A DNA stretch of 64,000 nucleotides from an uncultured Desulfobacula sp. (GCA_964343845.1 CAYFKW010000016.1:19718-83717); one strand, 5' to 3'. Counted from the first letter of the stretch, positions 25,526-39,126 are shown. A program made the numbers and translations. Notes: generated by a model from the sequence alone, not told the origin.

Positions 25526-28120
25526 TTATATTGGCATCACCTTTCGATAGACTTTATCAAACGGTAATGCAGTACCATCAATGGTTAAAAGATCATCTTC
25601 AACGGAAATGCCGAACAGTGCTTCATTCTCTTTTAAATATGGAAGAATGAGGTTCCAGTCTGCATCTGTGAGCTCAGCAAACTTGCCGCCATTCAGATGC
25701 TCATCAACTACCTTACATTCCGGGTCTCTTAAAAAGATGGCACCGCCTGATGCAAGTGAAAACAGGTTTGACCCCGGATACGGCATGTCAAGATCAATCA
25801 CATTTCCGTTATCATCAAATTTAATACCATTGACAATAACAAAGCCGCCGCCATTCAGGGGATCACCTGCCATAAACGATTCAGCAAGGTAATCTAGACA
25901 CGTACCATTAATCACAACCCTTGGGCCGCCTGTTGCATTTATCAGGGGACGACCCGCAGCATTGCCCAATATATAAACATCCCCGCCTTTAGCGCCATAC
26001 ATAAAGGTTTGACCGACATCTCCGTGGACGACGAATTTTCCGCGTTTCATGATCTGTCCCAATTGATCCTGGGCATTCCCGTGAACATGGATCTGCATAC
26101 CATCAATCCCGGATGCCATGTAATCGCCTGAACTGTCGTACACATCAAATCGTACATCATCTGTACCAGGTCCAAACCCGCAGCCTGTAAATCTCTGGCC
26201 TTTGTATCCATAGCAGATATATTGCTTCCAGCCCAATCGATAGGCGTTGTTAATCATCCTGGAATCGCAATCTTTGCCTTCGGGCTCGAATTCTCGGGCA
26301 TTTACAATGAGAATTTTTTCCTTACCTTCTGGTGCGCGTAAATCTTTTCTTGTTGCACGATCAATATATGCATACCGCTGGTTTTTACTGTCTCCAATTT
26401 TAGGTGAGGATTTAAATATGGATGTCAGGCTTTCTCTGATAATTTGGAGAACCGAACTCCTTTTCTTATTGCCTGTTGGAAACAATCTGTCGTTTAAATG
26501 GGAGAGAAGATCAATGCCCATTCTCTTTTTATCATCATTATCCTTGGCAAATCCTTCAATCAACCCGCAAAGCTGTTTTAATTCTTCAAAACTTAAACCG
26601 GCAATCTCAGAGATACAGGCTTGTTTTAACCCCTGCAGATCCTGTGCGTCAAAAAGTTCGGTTATCTTATCTGTCAACGCTTTGTTCTCTTTTGTCCGCC
26701 CTAAATCCAACGTTACATCAAAATGGATTTGACCTTCTGGTGTCTGCACAACCTCACCGAATTTATTCTGTGTAATGAGTTTTTTAGATCCATCCCCTTT
26801 TTCGGAATCTTTTACAGTAAATGTAAATGCACCGCCGTCAGTGGCACTTCCTCCTCTGGCATTCCAGTATTTATCTGCAATTGGACAAAATCTGCTGTCT
26901 TCTTCAGCAATACTCTGCAATGTGGCATCTATGGCCTGTTTTTCAGAACAGACAAGCCCGATTTGAACGTCATCTCTTTCCTGGAGTGCGAAGACCTGGG
27001 GTCTTAACATCGCTGTGTCTGTGATGCCGATCAGCTGAAGGAGGTCCTTGTAAGGATCATTCCTTGCAATAATAAAGAACCAGGGCCCGTCAGGTGAGCC
27101 TGTCATATGCTGGGATTGAATGTATTTATACACATCCTGTTTATGGGAGGGCAGGCAGTCAAAATCATACTCAGTCGTCGGTGCCAGGGCTTCAATAATA
27201 TATTCCAATGGATAGTTAAAGACGCGGTTATACAGATCCAGTAAAAGAATAGAGGTTTCCGTGTCTGTCAGAAACTGGGGATAGATATTATATTGATTCA
27301 GGTATTCACATACAGCATGATAATTTGCAAAATCACCATTATGCACCAACGCTTCGTGCATACCTGAGAAAGGATGTGCACCGCCTGGATGCCACAGCCT
27401 GCCCCTGGTGGGATACCGCTGATGGGCGATCCAGCCGTGGGCCCTGAAATCATCCAGACAATAATACTGTGTTGCCTGCTCAGCATAGCCAACCACTTTT
27501 AATATCATCACATTTCTTGCATGGGACATAACAAACGCCTGCTTATCACCAAGAGAGGCATAATACGTCTGATTTAACCGTGTTGAATTCTGAAAAACAA
27601 ATTCATCTTCTGCTTTTCGCGGGTCCATGCCATAGAAATCATTATATCGGATAAATTTCTCTAAAACATCTGGTTTGACACGTACAAAATACCGCCACAC
27701 ATCCGGTGGTTTTACATCAAGCCCGATAGAGGTGTAATCATCTATAGTGGGTGTTTTTTCTGATTTGTATATATCAAACATGGGGGTAATATTGGTGGAT
27801 TCAACCTGAGGGATGGCGTCATTATCCAGGTAGGCAACCTGCAGTAGATAATGGTCTTCCAGGACGTCCTGCGGTACGCCTAAATCACTGGCACTCAGTC
27901 CAACGGCAGCAATACCGCCGCCTTTACCATTCCCCCTGTTATGCATTTGGACAGAAGGTTCATAAATATGTTTGCCCGCAACAGGGATGTTGGCCATAAA
28001 ACCTGTTACACCGCATCCGCCTTCTTCATCACATTTGTTAACAGGTGTTTTGGTGTGGGGCAGCCGGCCCCTTGAAGCCAATATGTTGTTTATGATGTTA
28101 TCTGTATTTGTCTTCATCAT
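25526..28120 (-). CDS. Glutamate synthase-like protein: class II glutamine amidotransferase fused to GXGXG domain
   Basis: EEGGCGVTGF (Ntn Cys), HNRGNGKGGG, AHQRYPT, HPF, HNGDFAN, TDTE; C-terminal GXGXG repeats (GQRFTGCG, GNAQDQ, GDVGQTFMYGAKGG, GNAAGRP, ESFMAG). Confidence 0.88.
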   Translation of the reverse strand: MMKTNTDNIINNILASRGRLPHTKTPVNKCDEEGGCGVTGFMANIPVAGKHIYEPSVQMHNRGNGKGGGIAAVGLSASDLGVPQDVLEDHYLLQVAYLDNDAIPQVESTNITPMFDIYKSEKTPTIDDYTSIGLDVKPPDVWRYFVRVKPDVLEKFIRYNDFYGMDPRKAEDEFVFQNSTRLNQTYYASLGDKQAFVMSHARNVMILKVVGYAEQATQYYCLDDFRAHGWIAHQRYPTRGRLWHPGGAHPFSGMHEALVHNGDFANYHAVCEYLNQYNIYPQFLTDTETSILLLDLYNRVFNYPLEYIIEALAPTTEYDFDCLPSHKQDVYKYIQSQHMTGSPDGPWFFIIARNDPYKDLLQLIGITDTAMLRPQVFALQERDDVQIGLVCSEKQAIDATLQSIAEEDSRFCPIADKYWNARGGSATDGGAFTFTVKDSEKGDGSKKLITQNKFGEVVQTPEGQIHFDVTLDLGRTKENKALTDKITELFDAQDLQGLKQACISEIAGLSFEELKQLCGLIEGFAKDNDDKKRMGIDLLSHLNDRLFPTGNKKRSSVLQIIRESLTSIFKSSPKIGDSKNQRYAYIDRATRKDLRAPEGKEKILIVNAREFEPEGKDCDSRMINNAYRLGWKQYICYGYKGQRFTGCGFGPGTDDVRFDVYDSSGDYMASGIDGMQIHVHGNAQDQLGQIMKRGKFVVHGDVGQTFMYGAKGGDVYILGNAAGRPLINATGGPRVVINGTCLDYLAESFMAGDPLNGGGFVIVNGIKFDDNGNVIDLDMPYPGSNLFSLASGGAIFLRDPECKVVDEHLNGGKFAELTDADWNLILPYLKENEALFGISVEDDLLTIDGTALPFDKVYRKVMPI

Positions 28121-28135
28121 TTATTCAAGTCCTTA

Positions 28136-29680
28136 TTATAAAACCATTTTGTACTCAGGTGCCGGTTGGTATTTCTTTTTTTCTTCCTCATCCAGATAGT
28201 CAAGGTGAACCAGAAGATCTGAACGGCCGCGAAGCTCTTTAATACTTTTTAAACCATAGGTTCTTAAAATATCGCACCACTGTTTCCGCCAGGCCATATA
28301 CATATTGACCAGGCGCTGCTCAACATATTCTTCATCGGTCATATATCCGAGTTCCGGGTCTGTGGATGCGATACCACGTGCACAGCCGCGCCCGCTTTCA
28401 CAATTCCCGCATCTGACACATTCAACTGCAACAAGATCAGCAGTTCCGATGACACATCCATCAGCACCAAGCGCAATGGCTTTTGCAACATCGAGTCCGT
28501 TTCGGATTCCTCCGCTGGCAATCAAGGTAACCTTGTCTCTGGCGCCTTCTTCAACGAGAAATCTGTGGACTTTTGGAATAGCATATTCAATTGGCATTGC
28601 AATATTCTTTTTGGCGATATCAGGCGCAGCCCCTGTTCCGCCGTAACTGCCGTCTATATGAATAATATGGGCACCCGCGTAATAGGCACCAACTGCTACC
28701 ATGTCCACATCTGTCGGCGTAGACACTTTTATGGAGCATAATACATTGTTATTGATCTCTTTCATCCAGTCTACATGTTTTTTATGATCTTCAACTGAGT
28801 AAACAGAGTGGAATGGAAAGGGAGAAAAAAGAGAGGCGCCTACAACTGTTTCTCTCATTTTGGCAACGGCTTCAGTTACTTTTTCTCCTAAGAGATGTCC
28901 GCCCAATCCTGGCTTTGCCCCCTGGGCATATTTAAATTCCATGATGGGGCAGTGTTGTATTGTTTCCTCCCTGACGCCAAACAGTCCTGTTGCCACCTGT
29001 GTAATCACATGCTCTTTGTAGGGTAGGAATTCAGGCGGGTACCCACCTTCTCCTGTACAGGTGAGAGAATTAAGTCTTTTGGCTGCTCTTGCTCTGCCGA
29101 CAATGATAGATAACGCTGTAGACCCGTAAGACATACCGCCCCCATAACAGGGAATGGAAATGGTTTTTTCAGGTCTGCCGTCTCCTGTCTTGTTCAGTTC
29201 AATGCTGGTATCAATGTCTTCATCACTAATATCTATGGCAGTGCTGGGATCCGGTTCAATAAATCGCATTTTATCAAACCCGCCGCCAGAGTTGCCTAAA
29301 TTATACTCAAGATCTACATGGGGCAGCTCTCCGGTCTCTGCCATGGCAAAATGACCCAACAGCATATCTGGTGTCCACCGGTAATCTCCCATGGTGTCCA
29401 ATAAAGGGTTTTCTTTTAACACCATGGCATCTTCAGGGCAGTGTTCAATACAATAGTGATCGGTTTTTTTACAGTCAGGCCCCACGCAGTTGTGTTCAAC
29501 CGGTCGAAAGGGCGATTTATGATTGTCCGGCATGATGTGAACACCATGAGGGCAGAGCTCTGCACACTTACCGCAAGAAACGCATTTAGCATTTCTTTTG
29601 ACAATATATTTGCCGATGGTGTTTCGAAACCGTGAAGGTGTTTTTTTGATTTCAGGCAGTTTTATTTCTGAATTACTCAT
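28136..29680 (-). CDS. Glutamate synthase FMN-binding subunit (GltB2 type) with N-terminal ferredoxin
   Basis: CVSCGKCAELCP...CIEHCP; GGGMSYGS, TGEGG, QVATGLFGV, EFKYAQGAKPGLGGHL, SGGIR, ALGADG, CVRCGNC...C. Confidence 0.92.
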   Translation of the reverse strand: MSNSEIKLPEIKKTPSRFRNTIGKYIVKRNAKCVSCGKCAELCPHGVHIMPDNHKSPFRPVEHNCVGPDCKKTDHYCIEHCPEDAMVLKENPLLDTMGDYRWTPDMLLGHFAMAETGELPHVDLEYNLGNSGGGFDKMRFIEPDPSTAIDISDEDIDTSIELNKTGDGRPEKTISIPCYGGGMSYGSTALSIIVGRARAAKRLNSLTCTGEGGYPPEFLPYKEHVITQVATGLFGVREETIQHCPIMEFKYAQGAKPGLGGHLLGEKVTEAVAKMRETVVGASLFSPFPFHSVYSVEDHKKHVDWMKEINNNVLCSIKVSTPTDVDMVAVGAYYAGAHIIHIDGSYGGTGAAPDIAKKNIAMPIEYAIPKVHRFLVEEGARDKVTLIASGGIRNGLDVAKAIALGADGCVIGTADLVAVECVRCGNCESGRGCARGIASTDPELGYMTDEEYVEQRLVNMYMAWRKQWCDILRTYGLKSIKELRGRSDLLVHLDYLDEEEKKKYQPAPEYKMVL

Positions 29681-29683
29681 AAT

Positions 29684-31102
29684 TTATCCTACATCTATAG
29701 ATACTTTGCGTTCACCGAAAATTGGTGCAAAACTTTCTTTTTCAAGGTCTTCAAACCACATGGATCGTCCAACTTCTCCCCTTAACCGTCTGGCTTCCCT
29801 CAACCCCATGGCACCAAGCATTTCAAGCATTTGATTCCGCCAGGCACCCATAAGGTTTATGATCCGATTGCTGCCATATTCAGAATCAATAGATTCCATT
29901 TCAACGGGACAGGAAAGATCCATTTCACATCGGCCGCACAACCGGCATTCCATGGCAATAAGAAGCGGCAGGTCAATTGAAACGCCGTCAGCACCACAGA
30001 TAATGGATTTGTTGACATGTTCCGCCAAACAGATACCGCCTGAGGCAAGGATATTAATCTGCTGTCGGGTTGCTGCATCGATTAGTGCCAGGTGGATATC
30101 CCGCAGCATATCCTTGATAAACCTCGGGTTGTCAGATTCAAGTTCTCTTCCCTGGCTGTCCGCGTAAACGTGGAGGGTATCAATCTCTTCTTTTGAAAGG
30201 TCGACACAAATTTGTGCATAATCAAGATCTGCTTTTAACTCAAGTCCAACACTGATCACCAGGTTTTCATTCATAGCCTTAAGCTGTTTGAAACAGGTTT
30301 CAATGCCGGGCTCATATTCAATCTCAACCATGTCAACGATGGACAGAAGTTTTGGATAATTTCCAAAGTTCTCTTTTTTTACCATTGGAACGATAGATTT
30401 TGAAAAAGACATCATGTCTTCATAAACATCTGCTGCCTTTACAAACATCTTTGTCCCAATAGCCTGGGCAGCAGTTAACATCGAAGCAAGAACGGATTTG
30501 CTGAAAACACCAAAATTGGGTTGTTGAAACAGAATTGGAAGCGGGATTTCAAGTATGGGTTTAACATCTACAGCAAGTGAACCGTCTGAATTAAACGATA
30601 ATCTTTCAGGCCTTCTTGAAAGCTCTATGCAGGTATTGATGTATTCCCGGCCATGGATACCGTCCCGTGTGGGGCGAACAATTTCTGACATGTCTGTCCA
30701 CATGGAATCAAATCCCTTTCCCACAAAACGGCCTCGATACCCTGCGCCGGAAACAGGGATGCTTCCTGTATGCGCCTGGTACCAGGTTCGGTTGAGGACA
30801 TCAGGTGTCCAATAGTCATCTCCAATTTCTCTGTACTCCGGGTTGACCACTCTTGAAAAAATTCCTTTGGTACATTCCTGGATACATCTAAAGCACGAAT
30901 TACACGTATACAAATATTCGGGCTCCTCCATTTTGCTCATGTGAAGATAGTTGTCTTTGAAGATGTCATATACACATTTTTTCTTTACACACTCTTTACA
31001 GCTGCCGGCACAGTTTTCCCTGAATTCTATGGTTGAGTATTTCCCAACAGGGTAAAACCGTGGTGGTGCTGCCTTTGTGTGAATATGATATTTTTGAGGC
31101 AT
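29684..31102 (-). CDS. Degenerate glutamate synthase FMN-domain paralog with N-terminal Fe-S motifs
   Basis: CAGSCKECVKKKC and CNSCFRCIQEC; GFDSMWTD, SGGICLAEHVNKSIICGADG, CRLCGRC, REARRLRG. The GGMS, TGEGG and QGAKPG motifs are absent. Confidence 0.82.
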   Translation of the reverse strand: MPQKYHIHTKAAPPRFYPVGKYSTIEFRENCAGSCKECVKKKCVYDIFKDNYLHMSKMEEPEYLYTCNSCFRCIQECTKGIFSRVVNPEYREIGDDYWTPDVLNRTWYQAHTGSIPVSGAGYRGRFVGKGFDSMWTDMSEIVRPTRDGIHGREYINTCIELSRRPERLSFNSDGSLAVDVKPILEIPLPILFQQPNFGVFSKSVLASMLTAAQAIGTKMFVKAADVYEDMMSFSKSIVPMVKKENFGNYPKLLSIVDMVEIEYEPGIETCFKQLKAMNENLVISVGLELKADLDYAQICVDLSKEEIDTLHVYADSQGRELESDNPRFIKDMLRDIHLALIDAATRQQINILASGGICLAEHVNKSIICGADGVSIDLPLLIAMECRLCGRCEMDLSCPVEMESIDSEYGSNRIINLMGAWRNQMLEMLGAMGLREARRLRGEVGRSMWFEDLEKESFAPIFGERKVSIDVG

Positions 31103-31122: not shown

Positions 31123-32031
31123 TTATTTTAGTCCAGCCTGTTCAACGATGCCGGCTACGGCGTCTTCCCACTCGATGGCCATAATATGAACCCCATGAAC
31201 CCCTTTAAGTTCTTTAAGTTCCTGTATGGTTTCAAGACAGATTTTAATGCCTTCACCTGCCTGATCCTTTTTATCAACACCGTCCATCCTTTGAATAATC
31301 TCTTCAGGCACATCCATGCCAGCCACTTTGCTGTTCATGTATTTTGCCATGCCGGCAGACCGAAGTGGTGTAACGCCACCTAAAATAAATACTTTTTCAG
31401 TTAACCCTTCTTCATTGGCCTGTCTGATCCACTCTTTAAACCTTGCCATGTTGTAAATACACTGGGTCTGGATGAAATCAACGCCGGCATCAATTTTTTT
31501 AGCAAGTCTGATAACTCTATATTCAAAAGGATCCGCAAAAGGGTTGGCTGCTGCACCAATAAACATCTGCGGGGCAACATCGAGATCAAATCCACTCATG
31601 TCTTTGCCTGTATCCCGCATATCACGAACCGTTCTAATCAGGTTTACAGAATCAATATCAAAAACATTCATGGCATCCGGCTGGCTGCCAAAATTTTGAT
31701 GATCCCCGGACAGGCATAGTATATTACGGATACCTAAAGAATAAGCACCCATAATATCGGATTGGATGGCAATGCGGTTCCTGTCCCTTACGACCATCTG
31801 CATCACAGGTTCTAAACCAGCCGAAACCAGATGGGCAGACGCAGCAATACTTGACATTCTTACGATAGCTGTCTGGTTATCGGTGACATTGACAGCATCA
31901 ACATGCCCATTTAATAATTTAATTTTTTTTTCAATGACCTCTTTATTTGCGCCCCTTGGAGGGCCGCATTCACCTGTTACTGCAAATTCGTTGTTAAGTA
32001 ATTTTTCGTGGAGTTTACTGATGGCATTCAT
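31123..32031 (-). CDS. metF: Methylenetetrahydrofolate reductase, FMN/FAD subunit
   Basis: ECGPPRG, VNVTDNQTA, CLSGDH, AKKIDAGVDFIQTQ, GVHIMA. Confidence 0.93.
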   Translation of the reverse strand: MNAISKLHEKLLNNEFAVTGECGPPRGANKEVIEKKIKLLNGHVDAVNVTDNQTAIVRMSSIAASAHLVSAGLEPVMQMVVRDRNRIAIQSDIMGAYSLGIRNILCLSGDHQNFGSQPDAMNVFDIDSVNLIRTVRDMRDTGKDMSGFDLDVAPQMFIGAAANPFADPFEYRVIRLAKKIDAGVDFIQTQCIYNMARFKEWIRQANEEGLTEKVFILGGVTPLRSAGMAKYMNSKVAGMDVPEEIIQRMDGVDKKDQAGEGIKICLETIQELKELKGVHGVHIMAIEWEDAVAGIVEQAGLK

Positions 32032-32696
32032 ATGATGTGGTCCTCCCTGATCAATTTTCTAGGTCCACCGGAAAGACTGGTATTCCAGTTTTTTGGAGGG
32101 ATATAGGTTTTTAAATTATCCATCTGGCCTAACGTACGAAGACGTTCAATTATCATGTGCCATGCACACTCTGTATTCGGGTCAATTTCGCAAAGCCCTT
32201 CCTGGGAACCGCCGCAGGGACCGTTTAAGAGTTTTTTGGAGCATCGGGTCACAGGGCAGACACCGCCAAAAGTTGCCAACTCACAGTTTCCGCACCCGGA
32301 ACATTCTTCAGTAAAAATACCGTGGCTCTCCTGTATGCCGATAAATGTGGTGTTTACACCAGGCAATACCACTTCTTTTTCAAATCGCTTGGCCATTGCC
32401 TGTACACCTGCACCGCAGGCAAGAGACAAAATAGCATCATTTCTTGCAATCGATTCCGCTGCTTCCTGAATAAATTCATTTTCGCATTGACGTTCGATGG
32501 TAAATTCTTCAATTTCAATGGGTCTTGCCATTTTGTTAAAACTCAGTCTCAGGGCAGATGCTAAAACAGCAACTTCGTCTTCACCGCCGGCAAAGCATGT
32601 TTTTACACAAGTGCCGCAGCCAAGAATCAAGACCTTTTTATAAGGTTCAACAAGTTCAATAATTTCGTTAATGGGTTTTTGACTACCGGTTATCAT
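32028..32696 (-). CDS. metV: MetV (MTHFR-associated Zn/Fe-S subunit)
   Basis: GCGTCVKTC, RQCE, ACGAGVQ, CSGCGNC...CPVTRCSKKLLNGPCGG...C...C; overlaps metF by 4 nt. Confidence 0.88.
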   Translation of the reverse strand: MITGSQKPINEIIELVEPYKKVLILGCGTCVKTCFAGGEDEVAVLASALRLSFNKMARPIEIEEFTIERQCENEFIQEAAESIARNDAILSLACGAGVQAMAKRFEKEVVLPGVNTTFIGIQESHGIFTEECSGCGNCELATFGGVCPVTRCSKKLLNGPCGGSQEGLCEIDPNTECAWHMIIERLRTLGQMDNLKTYIPPKNWNTSLSGGPRKLIREDHII

Positions 32697-32764
32697 TCTT
32701 TAACTCCGTTTTTTGGAAATATTTAAGAAAAGACCAGATTAAAGTAAGGTACGTTGCCATTATC

Positions 32765-32808
32765 TTTGATTTCATTGATTAGGGGAGTGATCAAACAATG
32801 AAATCAAA
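32765..32808. other. 13-bp perfect inverted repeat between mvhD and metV
   Basis: TTTGATTTCATTG (32765-32777) / CAATGAAATCAAA (32796-32808). Confidence 0.6.
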
Positions 32809-32866
32809 AATTAAACAATACCTCACTTTAAACCTGGCTTTTATAATAACATCAATAGGGATGGTA

Positions 32867-33271
32867 TTAATTAAAATGATTTAAAGCAGGATTCGGACCG
32901 ATCGTTTCAAGCGATGCTATTGTGTCCTGAATAATATCTTTAATCGACCCGCTGTCTTTCGCAGTTGTATTGAAAATGTTCAACCGCCCGCTGTCCATTC
33001 CAATGTCATCAAGGATAGTTTTTACATAATCAACCCGTTTCTTTGCCCGGATACTGCCTTCAGCATATCTGCAGCCCTTATTGGGACAAACAAGAACGAT
33101 GACAGCATCTGCACCCGCTTCAAAAGCTCTGAGCAGATGGACATCTTTTGTCATGGAGGAACAAGCCATTTTAACAGTTTTTGCTTCACAACCGTCAAAC
33201 ATCGAGGCTGTCTCTTCAAACGAGTTTAAACAATGAAACAGCGTAAGTTTTGGTGTTTTGTTAATGTTCAT
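32867..33271 (-). CDS. mvhD: MvhD-like [2Fe-2S] protein (methyl-viologen hydrogenase delta subunit family)
   Basis: Four Cys in MvhD spacing (FHC, MACSS, LVC, GCRY) and the motif AFEAGADAV...RAKKRV...IGMDSGRL; ATG 33271 preferred over TTG 33283. Confidence 0.85.
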   Translation of the reverse strand: MNINKTPKLTLFHCLNSFEETASMFDGCEAKTVKMACSSMTKDVHLLRAFEAGADAVIVLVCPNKGCRYAEGSIRAKKRVDYVKTILDDIGMDSGRLNIFNTTAKDSGSIKDIIQDTIASLETIGPNPALNHFN

Positions 33272-33291
33272 TTTTTTCCCCAAAATTAAAT

Positions 33292-33334
33292 AAAAAAAGG
33301 CATTCGCCCAGGTTAATATTGGGAAAACGCCTTT
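33292..33334 (-). terminator. Leader intrinsic terminator (attenuator) upstream of mvhD
   Basis: Minus strand reads AAAGGCGTTTTCCCA-ATATTAACC-TGGGCGAATGCCTTT-TTTT; its 5' arm is the loop and 3' arm of ANTAR hairpin P2. Confidence 0.85.
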
Positions 33335-33368
33335 GTTTTCTTTAATTTTGCTAATACGCCGTTGTATT
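33323..33368 (-). promoter_or_regulatory. ANTAR-binding dual-hexaloop RNA motif
   Basis: Minus strand: P1 AATAC-AACGGC-GTATT (33368-33353), 12-nt linker, P2 GAAAAC-AAAGGC-GTTTTC (33340-33323). Both loops have A at position 1 and G at position 4. Confidence 0.85.
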
Positions 33369-33381
33369 TAGCTGGATTCTC

Positions 33382-33410
33382 AGCTTAGTGGCAACGGTTA
33401 AAAATGTCAA
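33382..33410 (-). promoter_or_regulatory. sigma70-type promoter of the mvhD-metV-metF-glt operon
   Basis: TTGACA (33410-33405), 17-nt spacer, TAAGCT (33387-33382); P1 starts about 14 nt downstream. Confidence 0.75.
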
Positions 33411-33477
33411 GGGTTTTTTTGAATTGATGCGTCTTCTTCTGTTTTTCAAATGCTGGCGGATATAATCATGGCCATTG

Positions 33478-33586
33478 AATTTTTCGTGTTGTGAAGATTA
33501 TATGTCATGGAGGGCTGAAGGGGGGGTGAGTGAAGTTTAGTACCATGTACACCCCTTTCAGTTACCGGCTGTAACAGGAAATCTTT
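33478..33586 (+). repeat. Diverged copy of the dispersed element (copy E)
   Basis: TTTTCGTGTTGTGAAGATTATATGT...GAAGTTTAGTACCATGTACACCCCTTTCAGTTACCGGCTGTAACAGGAAATCTTT aligns co-linearly with copy A. Confidence 0.6.
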
Positions 33587-33746
33587 AAAGAATTTATATT
33601 CAGTTGAAGCCTTTAGTGTTGATTTCTGCTAAGATACGAATTATTTAAGCAACGGAACCCTGTGATATGAAATTGTCATTAAACGCTGTTTTAATCCTGT
33701 AATGGATACAATTGACTTTGATGCTGACAATTGACGTTTGAGAAAT

Positions 33747-34457
33747 ATGGACAAACAACCTGATACTCAAAAAAAAATCACCAATCGAGACCTGATTTTA
33801 CCATATGGACTTCCCTATTTTGCCTATGTGGGGATTGCCTCCCTGGGACAGGACAGGCTCCCTGTTGGAATAAATTACAGTTTAAAATTGATTATCGTTC
33901 CTCTATTATTATGGTGGGCGTGGAAATGGTATGTTCCCATAAAAGGGCCCAGGAAACCAATGGGCTCGGTTATTTTAGGTATTCTTTTCGGTCTTACAGG
34001 ACTTGTGCTCTGGTGTTTGTTGCTGGCACCATTTATAGATATCAGAGGAGAACCATGGGAATTATCCGGCTTTCTGCTGAGAATGGCTGCAGCGTCTTTA
34101 ATTGTGCCAGTGTTCGAAGAATTTTTTATCAGGGGCTATATTTTCAGGGCTGCCTATCAATGGGACAATAACCGGAAGAACAATGGTTTATCCGCGTTGA
34201 ATGAGACATTAGACAGGAACTGCATAAACAGTGTCAAACCCGGTGCCTGGAGCATCATGGCAATCGTGGTCTCAACCATTGCATTTACTGCAGGTCACCT
34301 GCCTGTTGAGTATCTGGCTGCCGCTGCCTACAGTATTTTGATATCGGTTTTGTGGATTATCCGCAAGGACCTTCTGTCATGCATGGTTGCCCATGGTGTG
34401 ACAAACCTGACACTGGGAATCTATGTATACTATTCCGGCCATTGGGGTTTCTGGTAG
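33747..34457 (+). CDS. CAAX prenyl protease-related (CPBP/Abi) intramembrane protease
   Basis: VPVFEEFFIRGY, FTAGH, AHGVTNL. Confidence 0.88.
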   Translation: MDKQPDTQKKITNRDLILPYGLPYFAYVGIASLGQDRLPVGINYSLKLIIVPLLLWWAWKWYVPIKGPRKPMGSVILGILFGLTGLVLWCLLLAPFIDIRGEPWELSGFLLRMAAASLIVPVFEEFFIRGYIFRAAYQWDNNRKNNGLSALNETLDRNCINSVKPGAWSIMAIVVSTIAFTAGHLPVEYLAAAAYSILISVLWIIRKDLLSCMVAHGVTNLTLGIYVYYSGHWGFW

Positions 34458-34492: not shown

Positions 34493-35512
34493 TTAAGATT
34501 TTAAAGCAATACATCGTTTTAATAAGTCAACTGCCTCTTCGCTGTCTTTTTCTTCTGTTAAGTCGAAAACCGATATTTTTGTATCGTCGATCAACACATT
34601 AGGGTTGCTTAATATTAAGTCGATCTGATTTTTAGAAAAGTATTTAGATAATTGTCTGCCGAATGTGAAATCTAAGGGTGCTTTTATTTTTGAAGGCTGT
34701 GAAAAATCTGAGTTATATCTTATGAGTTCCACCAACCCTTCTACAGGACCGGCTGACAGGTGGACACCATTCATTCCCTGTGAAACTTCTGCCAACCCAA
34801 GATCATCCATATTGTCTAGGAACAATTTTCTTAAACTGCCTTCTTCTGCAGTCACCGGATTTGTGGAACCGATAAAATTATTTCGAGCGTTTGACCAGTT
34901 CATGTCACCTGTCAAATTGAATACGATAATGGACCTTCCCGGATTTGTAAAATGCACTAACTGCCTTGGATGAAATCCGTTCACCAGATATACCAGTTTA
35001 TCATCCAGTTTTATTTTTTCGCAGTATGCGCCGCCTGCCAGTTTAATGTTTTTTGAATTCTGCCATAAAAAATCAAGTGATTCTGCATTGAAACATTTAT
35101 ACGTTTCTAAAAATTCAAAACCGCCCAATATCCGGCTTTCTGAAAATTTAACCCCAAACCGGGCTTCAAATTCAGTTTGGGCTGCGTCTGAAATGTTTTC
35201 AGAAGCGCTGCAGGCATTTTTATTTATTACACCGTAATGATTTGCAATGATATCATATTCTTTCAGGTATTCAGCAGAAAGGACTCTCACTGATTGTATT
35301 TTCAGTTCATATTTATCGATTTGTTTAAAAATAAGATCTACAATCTCCTGTATGTTTATTGCGTCATTTGCCAGGGTGATTTCCGGTTTAACAAAAAACA
35401 AAAATTCATTTTTACAGGCTGAAGTAGTTTCAGCCTCATAGATATGAGAATTCGTGATCTTTGAGTTCTGCGCTTTTTTTACTGTATCAAGGATTTGAGA
35501 TTTTAGTTCCAT
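34493..35512 (-). CDS. Atypical long nucleoside-diphosphate-kinase-fold protein
   Basis: FFVKPE, IGSTNPVTAEEGSLR and NGVHLS parallel the NDK motifs IKP, GATNP...PGTIR and NxxHGS, in a 339-aa protein. Confidence 0.65.
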   Translation of the reverse strand: MELKSQILDTVKKAQNSKITNSHIYEAETTSACKNEFLFFVKPEITLANDAINIQEIVDLIFKQIDKYELKIQSVRVLSAEYLKEYDIIANHYGVINKNACSASENISDAAQTEFEARFGVKFSESRILGGFEFLETYKCFNAESLDFLWQNSKNIKLAGGAYCEKIKLDDKLVYLVNGFHPRQLVHFTNPGRSIIVFNLTGDMNWSNARNNFIGSTNPVTAEEGSLRKLFLDNMDDLGLAEVSQGMNGVHLSAGPVEGLVELIRYNSDFSQPSKIKAPLDFTFGRQLSKYFSKNQIDLILSNPNVLIDDTKISVFDLTEEKDSEEAVDLLKRCIALKS

Positions 35513-35668
35513 TCTTTAAGCCCTCTGTTAAAAAATACATAACACCACTTTCCAGCTCCCTGCCAAGATCCTATAACATAAAAAAAAAGTAATATTAAAT
35601 TAATTTTTATTTAATATGACATCATAAATAAAAAACATTCAATCTGTATGGAGTGTGAATGCTTTTTT

Positions 35669-38191
35669 TTAATTGGTCTTGTCCTTTGAATTCGACAAAA
35701 CTTTCCTGACAGCAGCGGCTAATTGTTTACGATTGAGCGGCTTTTCGACATATTTCCGTATTCCCATTTCATGTGAGGCACCACTGTCAATTTTATGGCT
35801 GAAGCCTGTACACAAAATAACAGGCATATCAGGATTAATTTCTAGTATCTTTTTTGTTAATTGATCTCCTGTCAAACCCGGCATGGTCATATCCGTAATA
35901 ACAAGGTCAAATTTATCGGGTTCATTTTTTATCAGATCCAGTGCATGAATAGAACTGGTATGGTAAACGACATCATACCCCATACGTTTAAGCATTTCTG
36001 CTCCCATTTTTGCCAAAGCTTCTTCATCGTCTATAAATAGTATTTTTTCACTGCCTGCAAGATTAATATCAGGTGATTTTTCTTCTTTAAAGGACGCTTC
36101 ATCAGCTGAAGGAAATAGTATCTTGAAGGTGGTACCCTTCAATGGCTCACTGTAAACATTAATTGAGCCATTATAACTTTTAACGATACCGTGGACTACA
36201 GCAAGTCCCATTCCGGATCCTTTACCCACTTCTTTTGTGGTGAAATACGGGTCAAAGATTTTATCAATAATTGAATCTTCAATGCCGGTACCCGTATCTG
36301 TGATCGTTAACTGAACATATTTTCCCGGTCCAATATCCTGGAATTCAAGCGGTGTCGGGTCGTCCAGTTCGATTTCAGATAAATGTATTGTCAGCGTGCC
36401 GCCGTCTTCATCCATGGCGTGTGCCGCATTTGTACACAAATTGATTAGAATCTGGTGTATCTGCGTTGGATCTGCATTGATGATTCCCTGTATATCCCCG
36501 GCATTCATTTTAATGTCGATGGTTGCTGGAATGGATGACCGGACGAGCTTTATAGATTCTTTAATGATGGGAAGTATACGGATATTTTTTTTGGTTTGTT
36601 CTGATTTTCTGCTAAAGCTTAACAGCTGGTTGACGATATCTTTAGCCCGCATACCAGCGGTCTTAATTTCCTGAAGATTATTGTATGCAGGGCTCCACTG
36701 TGGGATATCGTCAATTGCCAATTCAGTGTTCCCAATGATAATCCCGAGGATATTGTTGAAGTCATGTGCGATACCGCCGGAAATTGTACCAATAGATTCC
36801 ATTTTATGCGCCTGACGAAGTTCTTCTTCCATGCGTTTTAATTCGGTAATATCAGATGCAATTTGAAGCTTTACGATCCGGCCGTCAGTCCACTCAATCG
36901 CCCGGTCATAATTGATATACCATTTTTTTGTTTTTGGATTTTGAGTCTGCCAGACATGAACACCTTTTGGATTGCCATCTTTATCAACAAGCTTGGCATT
37001 TGGACAATGGGCGCATTGACTGGATTGTCCTCTATATGCATCCCAGCAGATTTCACCTGTCATGTCCCTGCCAAAGCTGTCGATCATATATTGATTCATG
37101 AAAAGAATTTTATGGGTCTGCATATCAACCACGTAGACAGTTGCATCAATACTGTTTAAAACAGTAAAAAATCTTTTATGGGAATCCTGTAACGCTTTTT
37201 CCGAATGTTTAAGTTCTGTGATATCGGTTACAATGCCTTCAATCGCAACCAGCCTGCCCTTGTCATCCCAGACACCGACGTTCCGCTGGTGAATCCACCT
37301 TGTTTCATTTCCTTTATAAAGGATCTGGTATTCGTAGCTGGGATCGAGTTCTCCTTTTAACAGCAGCGCCCATTTTTCTTTGAAATAACCATGATAATTG
37401 GGATGGATGATTTCCTGGATCAGGATCGGATTTTGATACCAGGTTTCAGGCGGAAAACCAAATATGGTGTCTGATGCCGGGCTCACATATTCATATTTCC
37501 CGTCTGGCAGCGACATCCGGTAGATCATATCCTTTGCATTTTCCGTGAACCTGCGGTACTTTTCTTCATTGTTTTTCAGTTCATTTCGCGTCTTTTGAAA
37601 ATAGATCATCAACATGCCCAGGGCCACAGTAAATTCAAGCATTGCCCCTAAAAGATATCCCCATGGCGCCAACCATTCAACAGGTCTTAAAAATGGATAG
37701 TCTGCTTTGTGGAGACCCCAGAGAATAAAAGCGCTGCCGACAATGGTGCGCTCTTTTTTTTCATGTCTGCCTGATTTGAGGAATAATATACCGGTCGAAA
37801 TGTAGATAAGGGCTAAAAATGAAAAAGTGGGCAGAGAGATATAAAGGAATGGAAAATTGTGCAGGATACTGATAACAATCCACCCAATGTTGATACCACA
37901 AAGATACAGCCACACTTTTGGAAATTTTTTATCAATATAACAATAGGTTCCCCATAGAAGTATGATGCCGCTTACAAGGGTGGCAACCTGATTCCCGATC
38001 AGAAAAACATGGCTTTTATATCCTTTAATTAAAAACAGCATAAAGATGAATCTGGAGATGTAGACAGTCCAGCTTATCGTCCAGATTCCGAGATACTTTT
38101 TACGATCCAGCAGGTATAGATAAAAATATGTGGACGATAAAAGGATCGTCCCGATCATTGTCGCTATAACTGATGGAAACAGCCAAGACAT
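35669..38191 (-). CDS. Membrane-bound PAS-PAS hybrid histidine kinase/response regulator
   Basis: About seven N-terminal TM segments, two PAS domains, SGGIAHDFNNIL, NLCTNAAHAM, DTGTG, GSGMGL and REC (FIDDE, VITDMTMP, KP). Confidence 0.93.
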   Translation of the reverse strand: MSWLFPSVIATMIGTILLSSTYFYLYLLDRKKYLGIWTISWTVYISRFIFMLFLIKGYKSHVFLIGNQVATLVSGIILLWGTYCYIDKKFPKVWLYLCGINIGWIVISILHNFPFLYISLPTFSFLALIYISTGILFLKSGRHEKKERTIVGSAFILWGLHKADYPFLRPVEWLAPWGYLLGAMLEFTVALGMLMIYFQKTRNELKNNEEKYRRFTENAKDMIYRMSLPDGKYEYVSPASDTIFGFPPETWYQNPILIQEIIHPNYHGYFKEKWALLLKGELDPSYEYQILYKGNETRWIHQRNVGVWDDKGRLVAIEGIVTDITELKHSEKALQDSHKRFFTVLNSIDATVYVVDMQTHKILFMNQYMIDSFGRDMTGEICWDAYRGQSSQCAHCPNAKLVDKDGNPKGVHVWQTQNPKTKKWYINYDRAIEWTDGRIVKLQIASDITELKRMEEELRQAHKMESIGTISGGIAHDFNNILGIIIGNTELAIDDIPQWSPAYNNLQEIKTAGMRAKDIVNQLLSFSRKSEQTKKNIRILPIIKESIKLVRSSIPATIDIKMNAGDIQGIINADPTQIHQILINLCTNAAHAMDEDGGTLTIHLSEIELDDPTPLEFQDIGPGKYVQLTITDTGTGIEDSIIDKIFDPYFTTKEVGKGSGMGLAVVHGIVKSYNGSINVYSEPLKGTTFKILFPSADEASFKEEKSPDINLAGSEKILFIDDEEALAKMGAEMLKRMGYDVVYHTSSIHALDLIKNEPDKFDLVITDMTMPGLTGDQLTKKILEINPDMPVILCTGFSHKIDSGASHEMGIRKYVEKPLNRKQLAAAVRKVLSNSKDKTN

Positions 38192-38400: not shown

Positions 38401-39126
38401 TTAAGGAGAATTTTTGGTAAAAATTTCATCAGACAGAATGACAGCCTCTGCAACTTCACGAATTGATTTTCTCGAATCCATGCTTTTTTTACGAATCCAG
38501 CCATAGGCATCATCACCTGTCATTTTATGCTGGTCCATTAAAATTTCTTTTGCCTGTTCTATCTTTTTCCGCGCCTCTAATTCTTCCTGGATCACCCTTG
38601 TTTTCACCATGAGCTCTGTGTTTACAATCGCCACAGCGCTTTGATTGGCAACCGCTCTGAGAAGATTGACTTCAGTTGGAGAAAAATCATGAGGGGAAGC
38701 TGTAAAACAGTTTAAGACACCAATGACTTTCTCTTCTTTGGTGATCAAAGGAATGCCCACCATGGAGACAAGTCCCAGCTTTTTTGCCATTTCTTTTTCT
38801 TTAAATCGATCTGATTCCAGGACATCGTCTAATATCAGGGGCTTTTTGTGGGTTACAACATAACCGACAACCCCTTCATCCAGATTAAGTGCCCGGTCTT
38901 TTATATAGTCCGGAGAAATGGACTGGGTCGCTTTAAGCCGGATCTTTGGTGGTTTCTCATCTTCATTAACAATCCATAAAGAGCAGATCTCCACCCCTGT
39001 AACCTTAGCGGTTACCATGACAATCAGTTTCAACAGGTCTTCAATAAACAGATCTGATGTGATTGCCTGGCTGATATCAGTTAATGCTTTAATATACCCG
39101 TCATATGTCTGTTCTGATTTTTTCAT
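38401..39126 (-). CDS. GAF-ANTAR one-component RNA antiterminator
   Basis: GAF domain (EGVVGYV, SMVGIPL, IGVLNCFT, QSAVAI) followed by ANTAR (LEARKKIEQAKEILM...DAYGWIRKKSMDSRKSIREVAEAV). Confidence 0.92.
   Translation of the reverse strand: MKKSEQTYDGYIKALTDISQAITSDLFIEDLLKLIVMVTAKVTGVEICSLWIVNEDEKPPKIRLKATQSISPDYIKDRALNLDEGVVGYVVTHKKPLILDDVLESDRFKEKEMAKKLGLVSMVGIPLITKEEKVIGVLNCFTASPHDFSPTEVNLLRAVANQSAVAIVNTELMVKTRVIQEELEARKKIEQAKEILMDQHKMTGDDAYGWIRKKSMDSRKSIREVAEAVILSDEIFTKNSP

Follow-up and report, generated by a model that had tools for sequence, protein, structure and literature searches.

A short stretch of DNA before mvhD, at positions 33410 to 33292 of the window (the whole stretch of 64,000 nucleotides that was analyzed, from an uncultured Desulfobacula sp.), raises the question of whether expression of the genes behind it is decided by an RNA switch and, if so, which protein would read that switch and what metabolic role it would serve. 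The original prediction, that an ANTAR antitermination leader controls a folate-redox operon with a role in nitrogen assimilation, invokes a type of switch that is itself textbook. Ramesh et al. 2012 defined a dual-hexaloop motif in which the second hairpin, P2, overlaps terminators (PMC3369931), and the loop positions A1/G4 and closing C:G pairs were defined by SELEX and genetics for EutV and NasR (PMC3369931, PMC7496416), with Goodson et al. 2020 adding the terminal C:G pair and a SELEX consensus (PMC7496416). We consider it highly likely that 33410-33292 is the promoter and ANTAR-antiterminator leader of a six-gene operon, and that it is read by a neighboring GAF-ANTAR protein.

The predicted elements (promoter, P1, linker, P2 and terminator) all lie on the minus strand where they had been placed, and re-reading the sequence confirmed them to the base:

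33414 to 33420, minus strand: A-rich, UP-element-like tract, directly upstream of the -35 hexamer
33382 to 33410, minus strand: sigma-70-type promoter, with TTGACA at 33410-33405, a 17-nt spacer and TAAGCT at 33387-33382
33353 to 33368, minus strand: P1 hairpin, AATAC-AACGGC-GTATT, hexaloop with A1/G4 and closing C:G
33341 to 33352, minus strand: P1-P2 linker, A-rich, 12 nt, read from the sequence
33323 to 33340, minus strand: P2 hairpin, GAAAAC-AAAGGC-GTTTTC, hexaloop with A1/G4 and closing C:G
33292 to 33334, minus strand: intrinsic terminator, with 5' arm 33334-33320, loop 33319-33311, 3' arm 33310-33296 and U7 at 33298-33292

The P1 stem can be extended to GCU.AAUAC/GUAUUAGC (33372-33349). 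The 5' arm of the terminator consists of the P2 loop, the 3' arm of P2 and CCA, and through this overlap P2 and the terminator are mutually exclusive; 14 of the 15 terminator positions are paired, leaving one mismatch, around the 9-nt loop. Transcription probably starts near 33375, and the terminated RNA is predicted to be roughly 85 nt long. From the U-tract to the ATG of mvhD (33271) we measured 20 nt, in agreement with the predicted distance; this interval includes a GGGG Shine-Dalgarno sequence (33281-33278), which, like the start codon, lies outside the terminator and every predicted helix. The promoter recurs in related leaders: nearly all 23 of them have a run of A before CTTGACA, the -35 hexamer is TTGACA in all but one of the 23 relatives (the single exception having TTGACT), and the Desulfobacula leaders inspected by hand have a TAnnnT -10 hexamer after a spacer of 17 nt. 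Simple consensus scanners flagged neither the promoter nor the terminator of the leader, the former because its -10 matches only three of six consensus positions, and the latter because of its 9-nt loop and one mismatch. A search of 32800-33800 against Rfam 15 at E <= 10 gave no relevant match, and Rfam may hold no model of an ANTAR substrate; the matches to MicC, PCGEM1 and others over the leader were well under gathering scores and were dismissed as noise. Every defining feature of an ANTAR antiterminator leader that a sequence can reveal was found, and binding is predicted; this putative family membership draws on features set out in the literature and on a model built from these same leaders.

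The energetics of the leader suggest how such a switch would work. Its minimum-energy fold combines P1 with the terminator (-28.1 kcal/mol, z = -4.6), and none of 200 shuffled sequences was as stable. The terminator is predicted at -16.8 kcal/mol, compared to -3.4 for P2 alone and -6.5 for P1 and P2 together; because it is so much the stabler structure, the RNA left to itself should terminate, and the modeled thermodynamics thus agree with the proposal that the operon is off by default. A nascent transcript lacking the 3' arm of the terminator is predicted to fold into P1 and P2. The candidate reader of these two hairpins is encoded 5 kb upstream of the leader:

38401 to 39126, minus strand: GAF-ANTAR one-component regulator, 241 aa (Pfam GAF_2, E = 1e-20; ANTAR, E = 7.5e-20)

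Both of its domains score over the Pfam cut-offs (GAF_2 at residues 28-167, 74.8 bits; ANTAR at residues 179-230, 70.9 bits), and it is the sole match to PF03861 (ANTAR) in the 4.76-Mb assembly, at 73.7 bits. Its orthologs in relatives are 241-277 aa long. We infer that this protein binds the leader and that it does so in response to a signal. In the mechanism that we propose, the constitutive-looking sigma-70 promoter would initiate transcription, and by default the strong terminator with its U7 tract would halt RNA polymerase 20 nt before mvhD. The GAF-ANTAR protein, which presumably reads P1 and P2, would when active bind the AANGGC hexaloops of both hairpins, presumably as a dimer; the weak P2 would then be held closed, sequestering 12 of the 15 nt of the terminator 5' arm, and the polymerase would read through.

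A second glutamate synthase cluster, which has a GltD-like module, ends 74 nt before the gene for the regulator. The sequences most similar to the GAF domain of the regulator are the corresponding domains of PtsP (enzyme I-Ntr; 3ci6 and 3trc), and there is a match to NifA as well. In PtsP and NifA these domains have been reported to sense glutamine and/or 2-oxoglutarate. This resemblance gives a lead to the ligand, which may be a metabolite of nitrogen or carbon status, e.g., 2-oxoglutarate or glutamine. As a separate observation, the ANTAR gene is only 0.5-1 kb from the mvhD leader in several Desulfobacula relatives, and the block at 34493-38191 may therefore be an insertion here.

As to what is controlled, the original prediction named mvhD-metV-metF. 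These genes do follow the leader, but the unit is longer, with three glutamate-synthase-like genes behind them:

32867 to 33271, minus strand: mvhD, first gene, 134 aa, FlpD/MvhD family (Pfam PF02662, E = 2.4e-21)
32028 to 32696, minus strand: metV, 222 aa, MTHFR C-terminal/DUF5981 family (Pfam PF12225, E = 2e-36)
31123 to 32031, minus strand: metF, 302 aa, methylenetetrahydrofolate reductase family (Pfam PF02219, E = 2.5e-40)
29684 to 31102, minus strand: 472-aa divergent protein resembling the glutamate synthase FMN domain (PF01645 weak, E = 1.8e-12)
28136 to 29680, minus strand: 514-aa ferredoxin-fused glutamate synthase FMN subunit, archaeal type (PF01645, E = 2.2e-86, 290.8 bits; 4Fe-4S domains)
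25526 to 28120, minus strand: last gene, 864-aa class-II amidotransferase-like and GXGXG protein (PF01493, PF13522)

No convincing terminator was found inside this six-gene run from mvhD to the 864-aa gene, and the switch would govern an MvhD-MetVF-glutamate-synthase-like operon rather than a folate operon alone. The metV gene overlaps metF, and MetF aligns to solved MTHFRs with its SGD and TQ motifs kept. A search with MetV in 61 related genomes gave 27 orthologous loci (70-92% identity), all of which keep the order metV-metF-472-aa gene; mvhD lies upstream of metV at 26, the exception (L026) beginning at a contig end. The 472-aa protein is the best conserved of the operon (90-96% identical within the genus). 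The features of an archaeal-type split glutamate synthase are present to different degrees, in that the FMN-ferredoxin subunit is clear, GXGXG is present, the amidotransferase signal is weak, and the 472-aa paralog is degenerate; none of the six genes encodes a GltD-type, NAD(P)H-binding subunit. In the 864-aa protein the similarity to class-II amidotransferases begins only near residue 180, so that the usual N-terminal nucleophile Cys would be internal, and the glutaminase may lack activity, undergo processing, or have an additional domain in front of it. The spacer between mvhD and metV (32697-32866, minus strand, 170 nt) contains a long stable hairpin, the whole spacer folding at -52 kcal/mol. 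The Desulfobacula loci share this conserved hairpin: of its 32 predicted pairs, 17 show compensatory changes, and its C-rich apical loop, C(A/U)CUCCCC, does not vary and is complementary to Shine-Dalgarno sequences rich in G. Rfam gave no match to the hairpin, no second copy occurs in the genome, and other families have a spacer of only 31-84 nt; the hairpin may act in processing or stability, or as an anti-SD element.

How much weight the leader can bear depends on comparison, because the bare pattern occurs at close to the rate expected by chance. A strict form of it, requiring closing C:G pairs, A1/G4 in both hexaloops, four or more pairs per stem, 5-25 nt between the hairpins and a T5 run no more than 55 nt away, was found 3 times in the 4.76-Mb genome, against about once in Markov-random genomes. 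Relaxed regular-expression scans returned 59-363 dual-hairpin matches, nearly all of them in ORFs, and were discarded as useless as evidence. At 23 of the 27 orthologous loci, we recovered 24 leader copies with two hexaloops and a U-tailed hairpin before mvhD, and in every copy this hairpin starts inside the P2 loop. A covariance model added two further loci, and at least P2 can be seen at a third. The design stands ahead of the orthologous operon in about 25 genomes of Desulfobacterales; the 24 copies span Desulfobacula and at least five other families, with linkers of about 10 to 25 nt in the relatives. Aligned to each other, they have 92% of stem cells paired, compared to 82% in shuffles, and 31 cells changed on both sides, a number that none of 500 shuffles reached; the columns of A1 and G4 in the loops do not vary. 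A tandem duplication was seen in one genome (G044, L024:2787-2974), where two complete units of hairpin pair and terminator stand before mvhD.

From the leaders themselves we built a covariance model of P1, linker and P2, termed R1, which gave 81 matches in the loci searched, 62 of them distinct. In the alignment of these 62, which was fitted to R1 and hence leans towards the structure, 90% of stem cells are paired and 160 carry compensatory changes, again reached by none of 500 shuffles, and sliding the structures by 1-3 columns left only 32-56% paired. Covariation was found at five of the seven pairs of P1, and compensatory changes at four of the six pairs of P2. The closing C:G pair is present in 61 of the 62 leaders at P1, and at P2 in all 61 that have letters at that pair. 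The A-U and C:G pairs beneath each loop are essentially invariant while the lower stems covary, which is the signature of a protein that reads loops. An overlapping terminator of -8 kcal/mol or stronger accompanies at least 50 of the 62 distinct matches, and several of the remainder were missed only because the T-run detector stopped early. Conservation with compensatory changes extends across at least 12 families.

A genome-wide scan for the motif, which the original prediction had proposed as a check, gave two R1 sites at E <= 0.01 in the whole 4.76-Mb genome, both promoter-proximal and both with overlapping terminators. The leader in the window scored 72 bits, and the other site 36 bits (E = 6e-5):

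contig C2 of genome G000, 94266 to 94317 (L038:14267-14318), minus strand: second ANTAR leader, with its own TTGACA promoter
L038:12509-14167, downstream of the second leader: monocistronic gene for a 552-aa glutamate-synthase-FMN-like flavoprotein

The P1 of this second leader reads TTTTTAC-AAAGGC-GTAAAAA, its P2 has a short stem and the loop AAAGGC, and the overlapping terminator ends in U8; the same GAF-ANTAR protein would control it as well. The 552-aa protein shows a weak Glu_synthase match and a Cys-rich N-terminus; sequence comparison revealed neither a close paralogy to the 472-aa or 514-aa proteins of the operon nor a solved relative. Weak R1 matches at C1:262857, C1:156199, C33:12142 and C4:47571, and at L062 and L066 in relatives, were rejected as false positives that lie in coding sequence or are missing one of the hairpins or a terminator. 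The genome has four metV paralogs, and the whole-genome search gave no R1 match at E <= 0.01 near the other metV copies listed. With filters off, R1 found no second site in the whole 64-kb window, including 39-45 kb; there is accordingly nothing at the second glutamate synthase cluster or the ANTAR gene that suggests autoregulation. Both ANTAR-controlled loci also have as a neighbor a same-strand pair of genes (34493-38191 in the window and L038:7361-10930), encoding a 339-aa protein, which is NMT1/THI5-like at the C2 locus and has no Pfam match in the window copy, and a hybrid histidine kinase-receiver protein of about 840 aa.

In relatives the motif precedes a broader set of genes. Orthologs of the 552-aa gene carry the same leader in about 20 of the 61 genomes, and R1 leaders stand before gdhA at six sites in five relatives, some of them with weak terminators. 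One relative has an R1 leader before the isocitrate dehydrogenase gene (icd), and one before an operon of class IV aminotransferase, alanine racemase and PGA_cap genes. In the relative with the icd leader, genome G047 (L046), a duplication has produced the order leader-icd-leader-mvhD, with the first icd codons copied from mvhD. Judging from gene content, the common theme of the genes preceded by R1 appears to be making glutamate. The suggestion of a role in nitrogen assimilation is strengthened by these findings, since the motif is found also before a GltB-like flavoprotein gene and, in relatives, before gdhA, icd and the aminotransferase operon. The regulon mixes consumers of 2-oxoglutarate (GOGAT-like proteins, GDH) with a producer (Icd), so that no simple signal can be read from it, and we therefore describe its output as 'glutamate supply', without commitment to induction under nitrogen limitation as opposed to some other need for glutamate.

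The RNA motif and the proposed regulator tend to be found together. Among the 61 relatives, R1 matches at E <= 0.01 occur in 33 genomes and an ANTAR gene in 42, and 31 of the 33 genomes with the motif have the gene; one exception is a weak match inside an ORF, and the other is a genome that is 56% complete. In 21 genomes the ANTAR gene and the motif are 0.1-12 kb apart on one contig, often with the gene directly upstream of the motif. In G014, a Desulfobacula genome complete in a single contig, the leader follows the GAF-ANTAR gene at a distance of 0.5 kb. Seven other families show the GAF-ANTAR gene first, then the motif, and behind it either the 552-aa gene or gdhA. In eleven relatives an ANTAR gene was found without an R1 match at E <= 0.01; when five of these were searched again at a looser threshold, weak matches were found beside the ANTAR gene in two. 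The motif thus seems all but confined to ANTAR-gene genomes among the 61 searched, a pattern rather than a statistical test, since related genomes are not independent and the counts overstate the support.

Several other explanations for the leader can be weighed against these data. One is that AT-rich hairpins and a terminator happen to resemble the ANTAR pattern. A relaxed search of the genome does give dual A..G.. hexaloop pairs by the dozen, and the strict pattern with its T-run is expected about once per random genome; however, chance would hardly produce compensatory changes across so many families, a conserved promoter, a second site built alike, and linkage to the regulator gene, and we give this explanation next to no credence, as the comparative data effectively refute it. 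Another is that the leader is a protein-independent attenuator, or responds to some other factor, so that its hairpins serve folding or stability and the ANTAR gene is a neighbor by coincidence. The predicted nature of the binding and the eleven relatives that have the gene without a clear motif match would be compatible with this, but the invariance of A1/G4 and of the closing C:G above covarying stems is expected for a loop reader and not for folding alone. In addition, the loop consensus is identical to that of experimentally defined ANTAR/GnfR sites (PMC7496416, PMC2995071), and the motif is nearly restricted to genomes with an ANTAR gene, often adjoining it. We regard an attenuator of this kind as quite unlikely.

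It is also conceivable that the hairpins are ANTAR sites through which control is exerted mainly on translation or mRNA stability, and not on termination. Control of this type has been proposed for some actinobacterial ANTAR targets, descriptions from other phyla include targets that overlap ribosome-binding sites, and the weak terminators in some gdhA leaders of relatives would fit as well. In the leader studied here, however, the Shine-Dalgarno sequence and start codon are free of every predicted helix, and in all 24 orthologous leaders the U7 terminator overlaps P2 rather than the ribosome-binding site, making control at these levels very unlikely to be the main mode. Antitermination by the GAF-ANTAR protein is the reading that we prefer.

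The proposed switch resembles several known systems and differs from each of them. The eut leaders of Enterococcus faecalis, read by EutV/EutW, likewise have tandem A1/G4 hexaloops, a P2 that overlaps the terminator 5' arm, and a default off state (PMC3369931). However, EutV is a phosphorylated REC-ANTAR protein whereas the regulator here is a one-component GAF-ANTAR protein, the targets here are glutamate-forming and folate-redox genes rather than genes of ethanolamine utilization, and the host belongs to the Desulfobacterota and not the Firmicutes. The nasF leader of Klebsiella oxytoca is closer with respect to the regulator, since NasR is also a one-component ANTAR protein that prevents termination at a P1P2 leader with A1/G4 and terminal C:G (PMC7496416), but its sensor is a NIT domain for nitrate/nitrite and its target is nitrate assimilation, in contrast to the GAF sensor here. 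Antitermination of nitrogen-fixation genes by an ANTAR protein was demonstrated by Ueki and Lovley 2010 for GnfK/GnfR of Geobacter sulfurreducens (PMC2995071). The GnfR site, CAGGCAANGGCGCC, shares its C-AANGGC-G hexaloop with P1 and P2 and overlaps the terminators of nitrogen-gene leaders (PMC2995071), and Geobacter is a deltaproteobacterial-type anaerobe, as is the host here. GnfR differs in being a response regulator fed by a kinase, under sigma-54/GnfM control, whereas we find a GAF sensor and a sigma-70-like promoter; Geobacter gdhA is under GnfM and not ANTAR, in contrast to the relatives here in which gdhA has an ANTAR leader.

The nearest precedent for the metabolic theme is a set of predictions made in 2012, in which Desulfotomaculum reducens was assigned ANTAR leaders upstream of genes for glutamate synthase, and Carboxydothermus hydrogenoformans upstream of 'glutamate synthase-like' genes (PMC3369931). 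These share both motif and theme with the leaders described here, and several leaders per genome likewise make up a small glutamate/nitrogen regulon; both organisms are Firmicutes. The supplement of that study has no occurrence of 'methylenetetrahydrofolate', no Desulfobacter- entries and no operon headed by mvhD-metV-metF (PMC3369931), and our literature search found no publication linking ANTAR to MetVF/MvhD. No GAF-ANTAR protein had been characterized at that time (PMC3369931), Goodson et al. 2020 named the PAL photoreceptor and NasR as the only characterized one-component ANTAR proteins (PMC7496416), and a full-text search of the literature found no characterized GAF-ANTAR protein.

The presence of one RNA motif and regulator common to the operon, gdhA, icd and a GltB-like flavoprotein gene assigns the MvhD-MetVF-glutamate-synthase-like operon to glutamate and nitrogen assimilation rather than to bulk C1 energy metabolism. 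This is regulatory evidence, independent of gene order, for the role of an operon that is widespread and uncharacterized. It also extends ANTAR-type control of glutamate synthesis into the Desulfobacterales, including marine sulfate reducers of the genus Desulfobacula. With two leaders and one regulator, the regulon in this bacterium is very small, and offers a tractable system in which the GAF ligand could be sought. A bolder reading, which we put forward as speculation and hold to be more doubtful than probable, is that the operon encodes an undescribed glutamate synthase fed with electrons via MetVF/MvhD, and that the GAF-ANTAR protein directly senses 2-oxoglutarate or glutamine. If so, the electrons could come, for example, from the oxidation of methyl-tetrahydrofolate in the reverse Wood-Ljungdahl pathway, and the GAF-ANTAR protein would be a one-component sensor that couples one-carbon redox flow to nitrogen assimilation.
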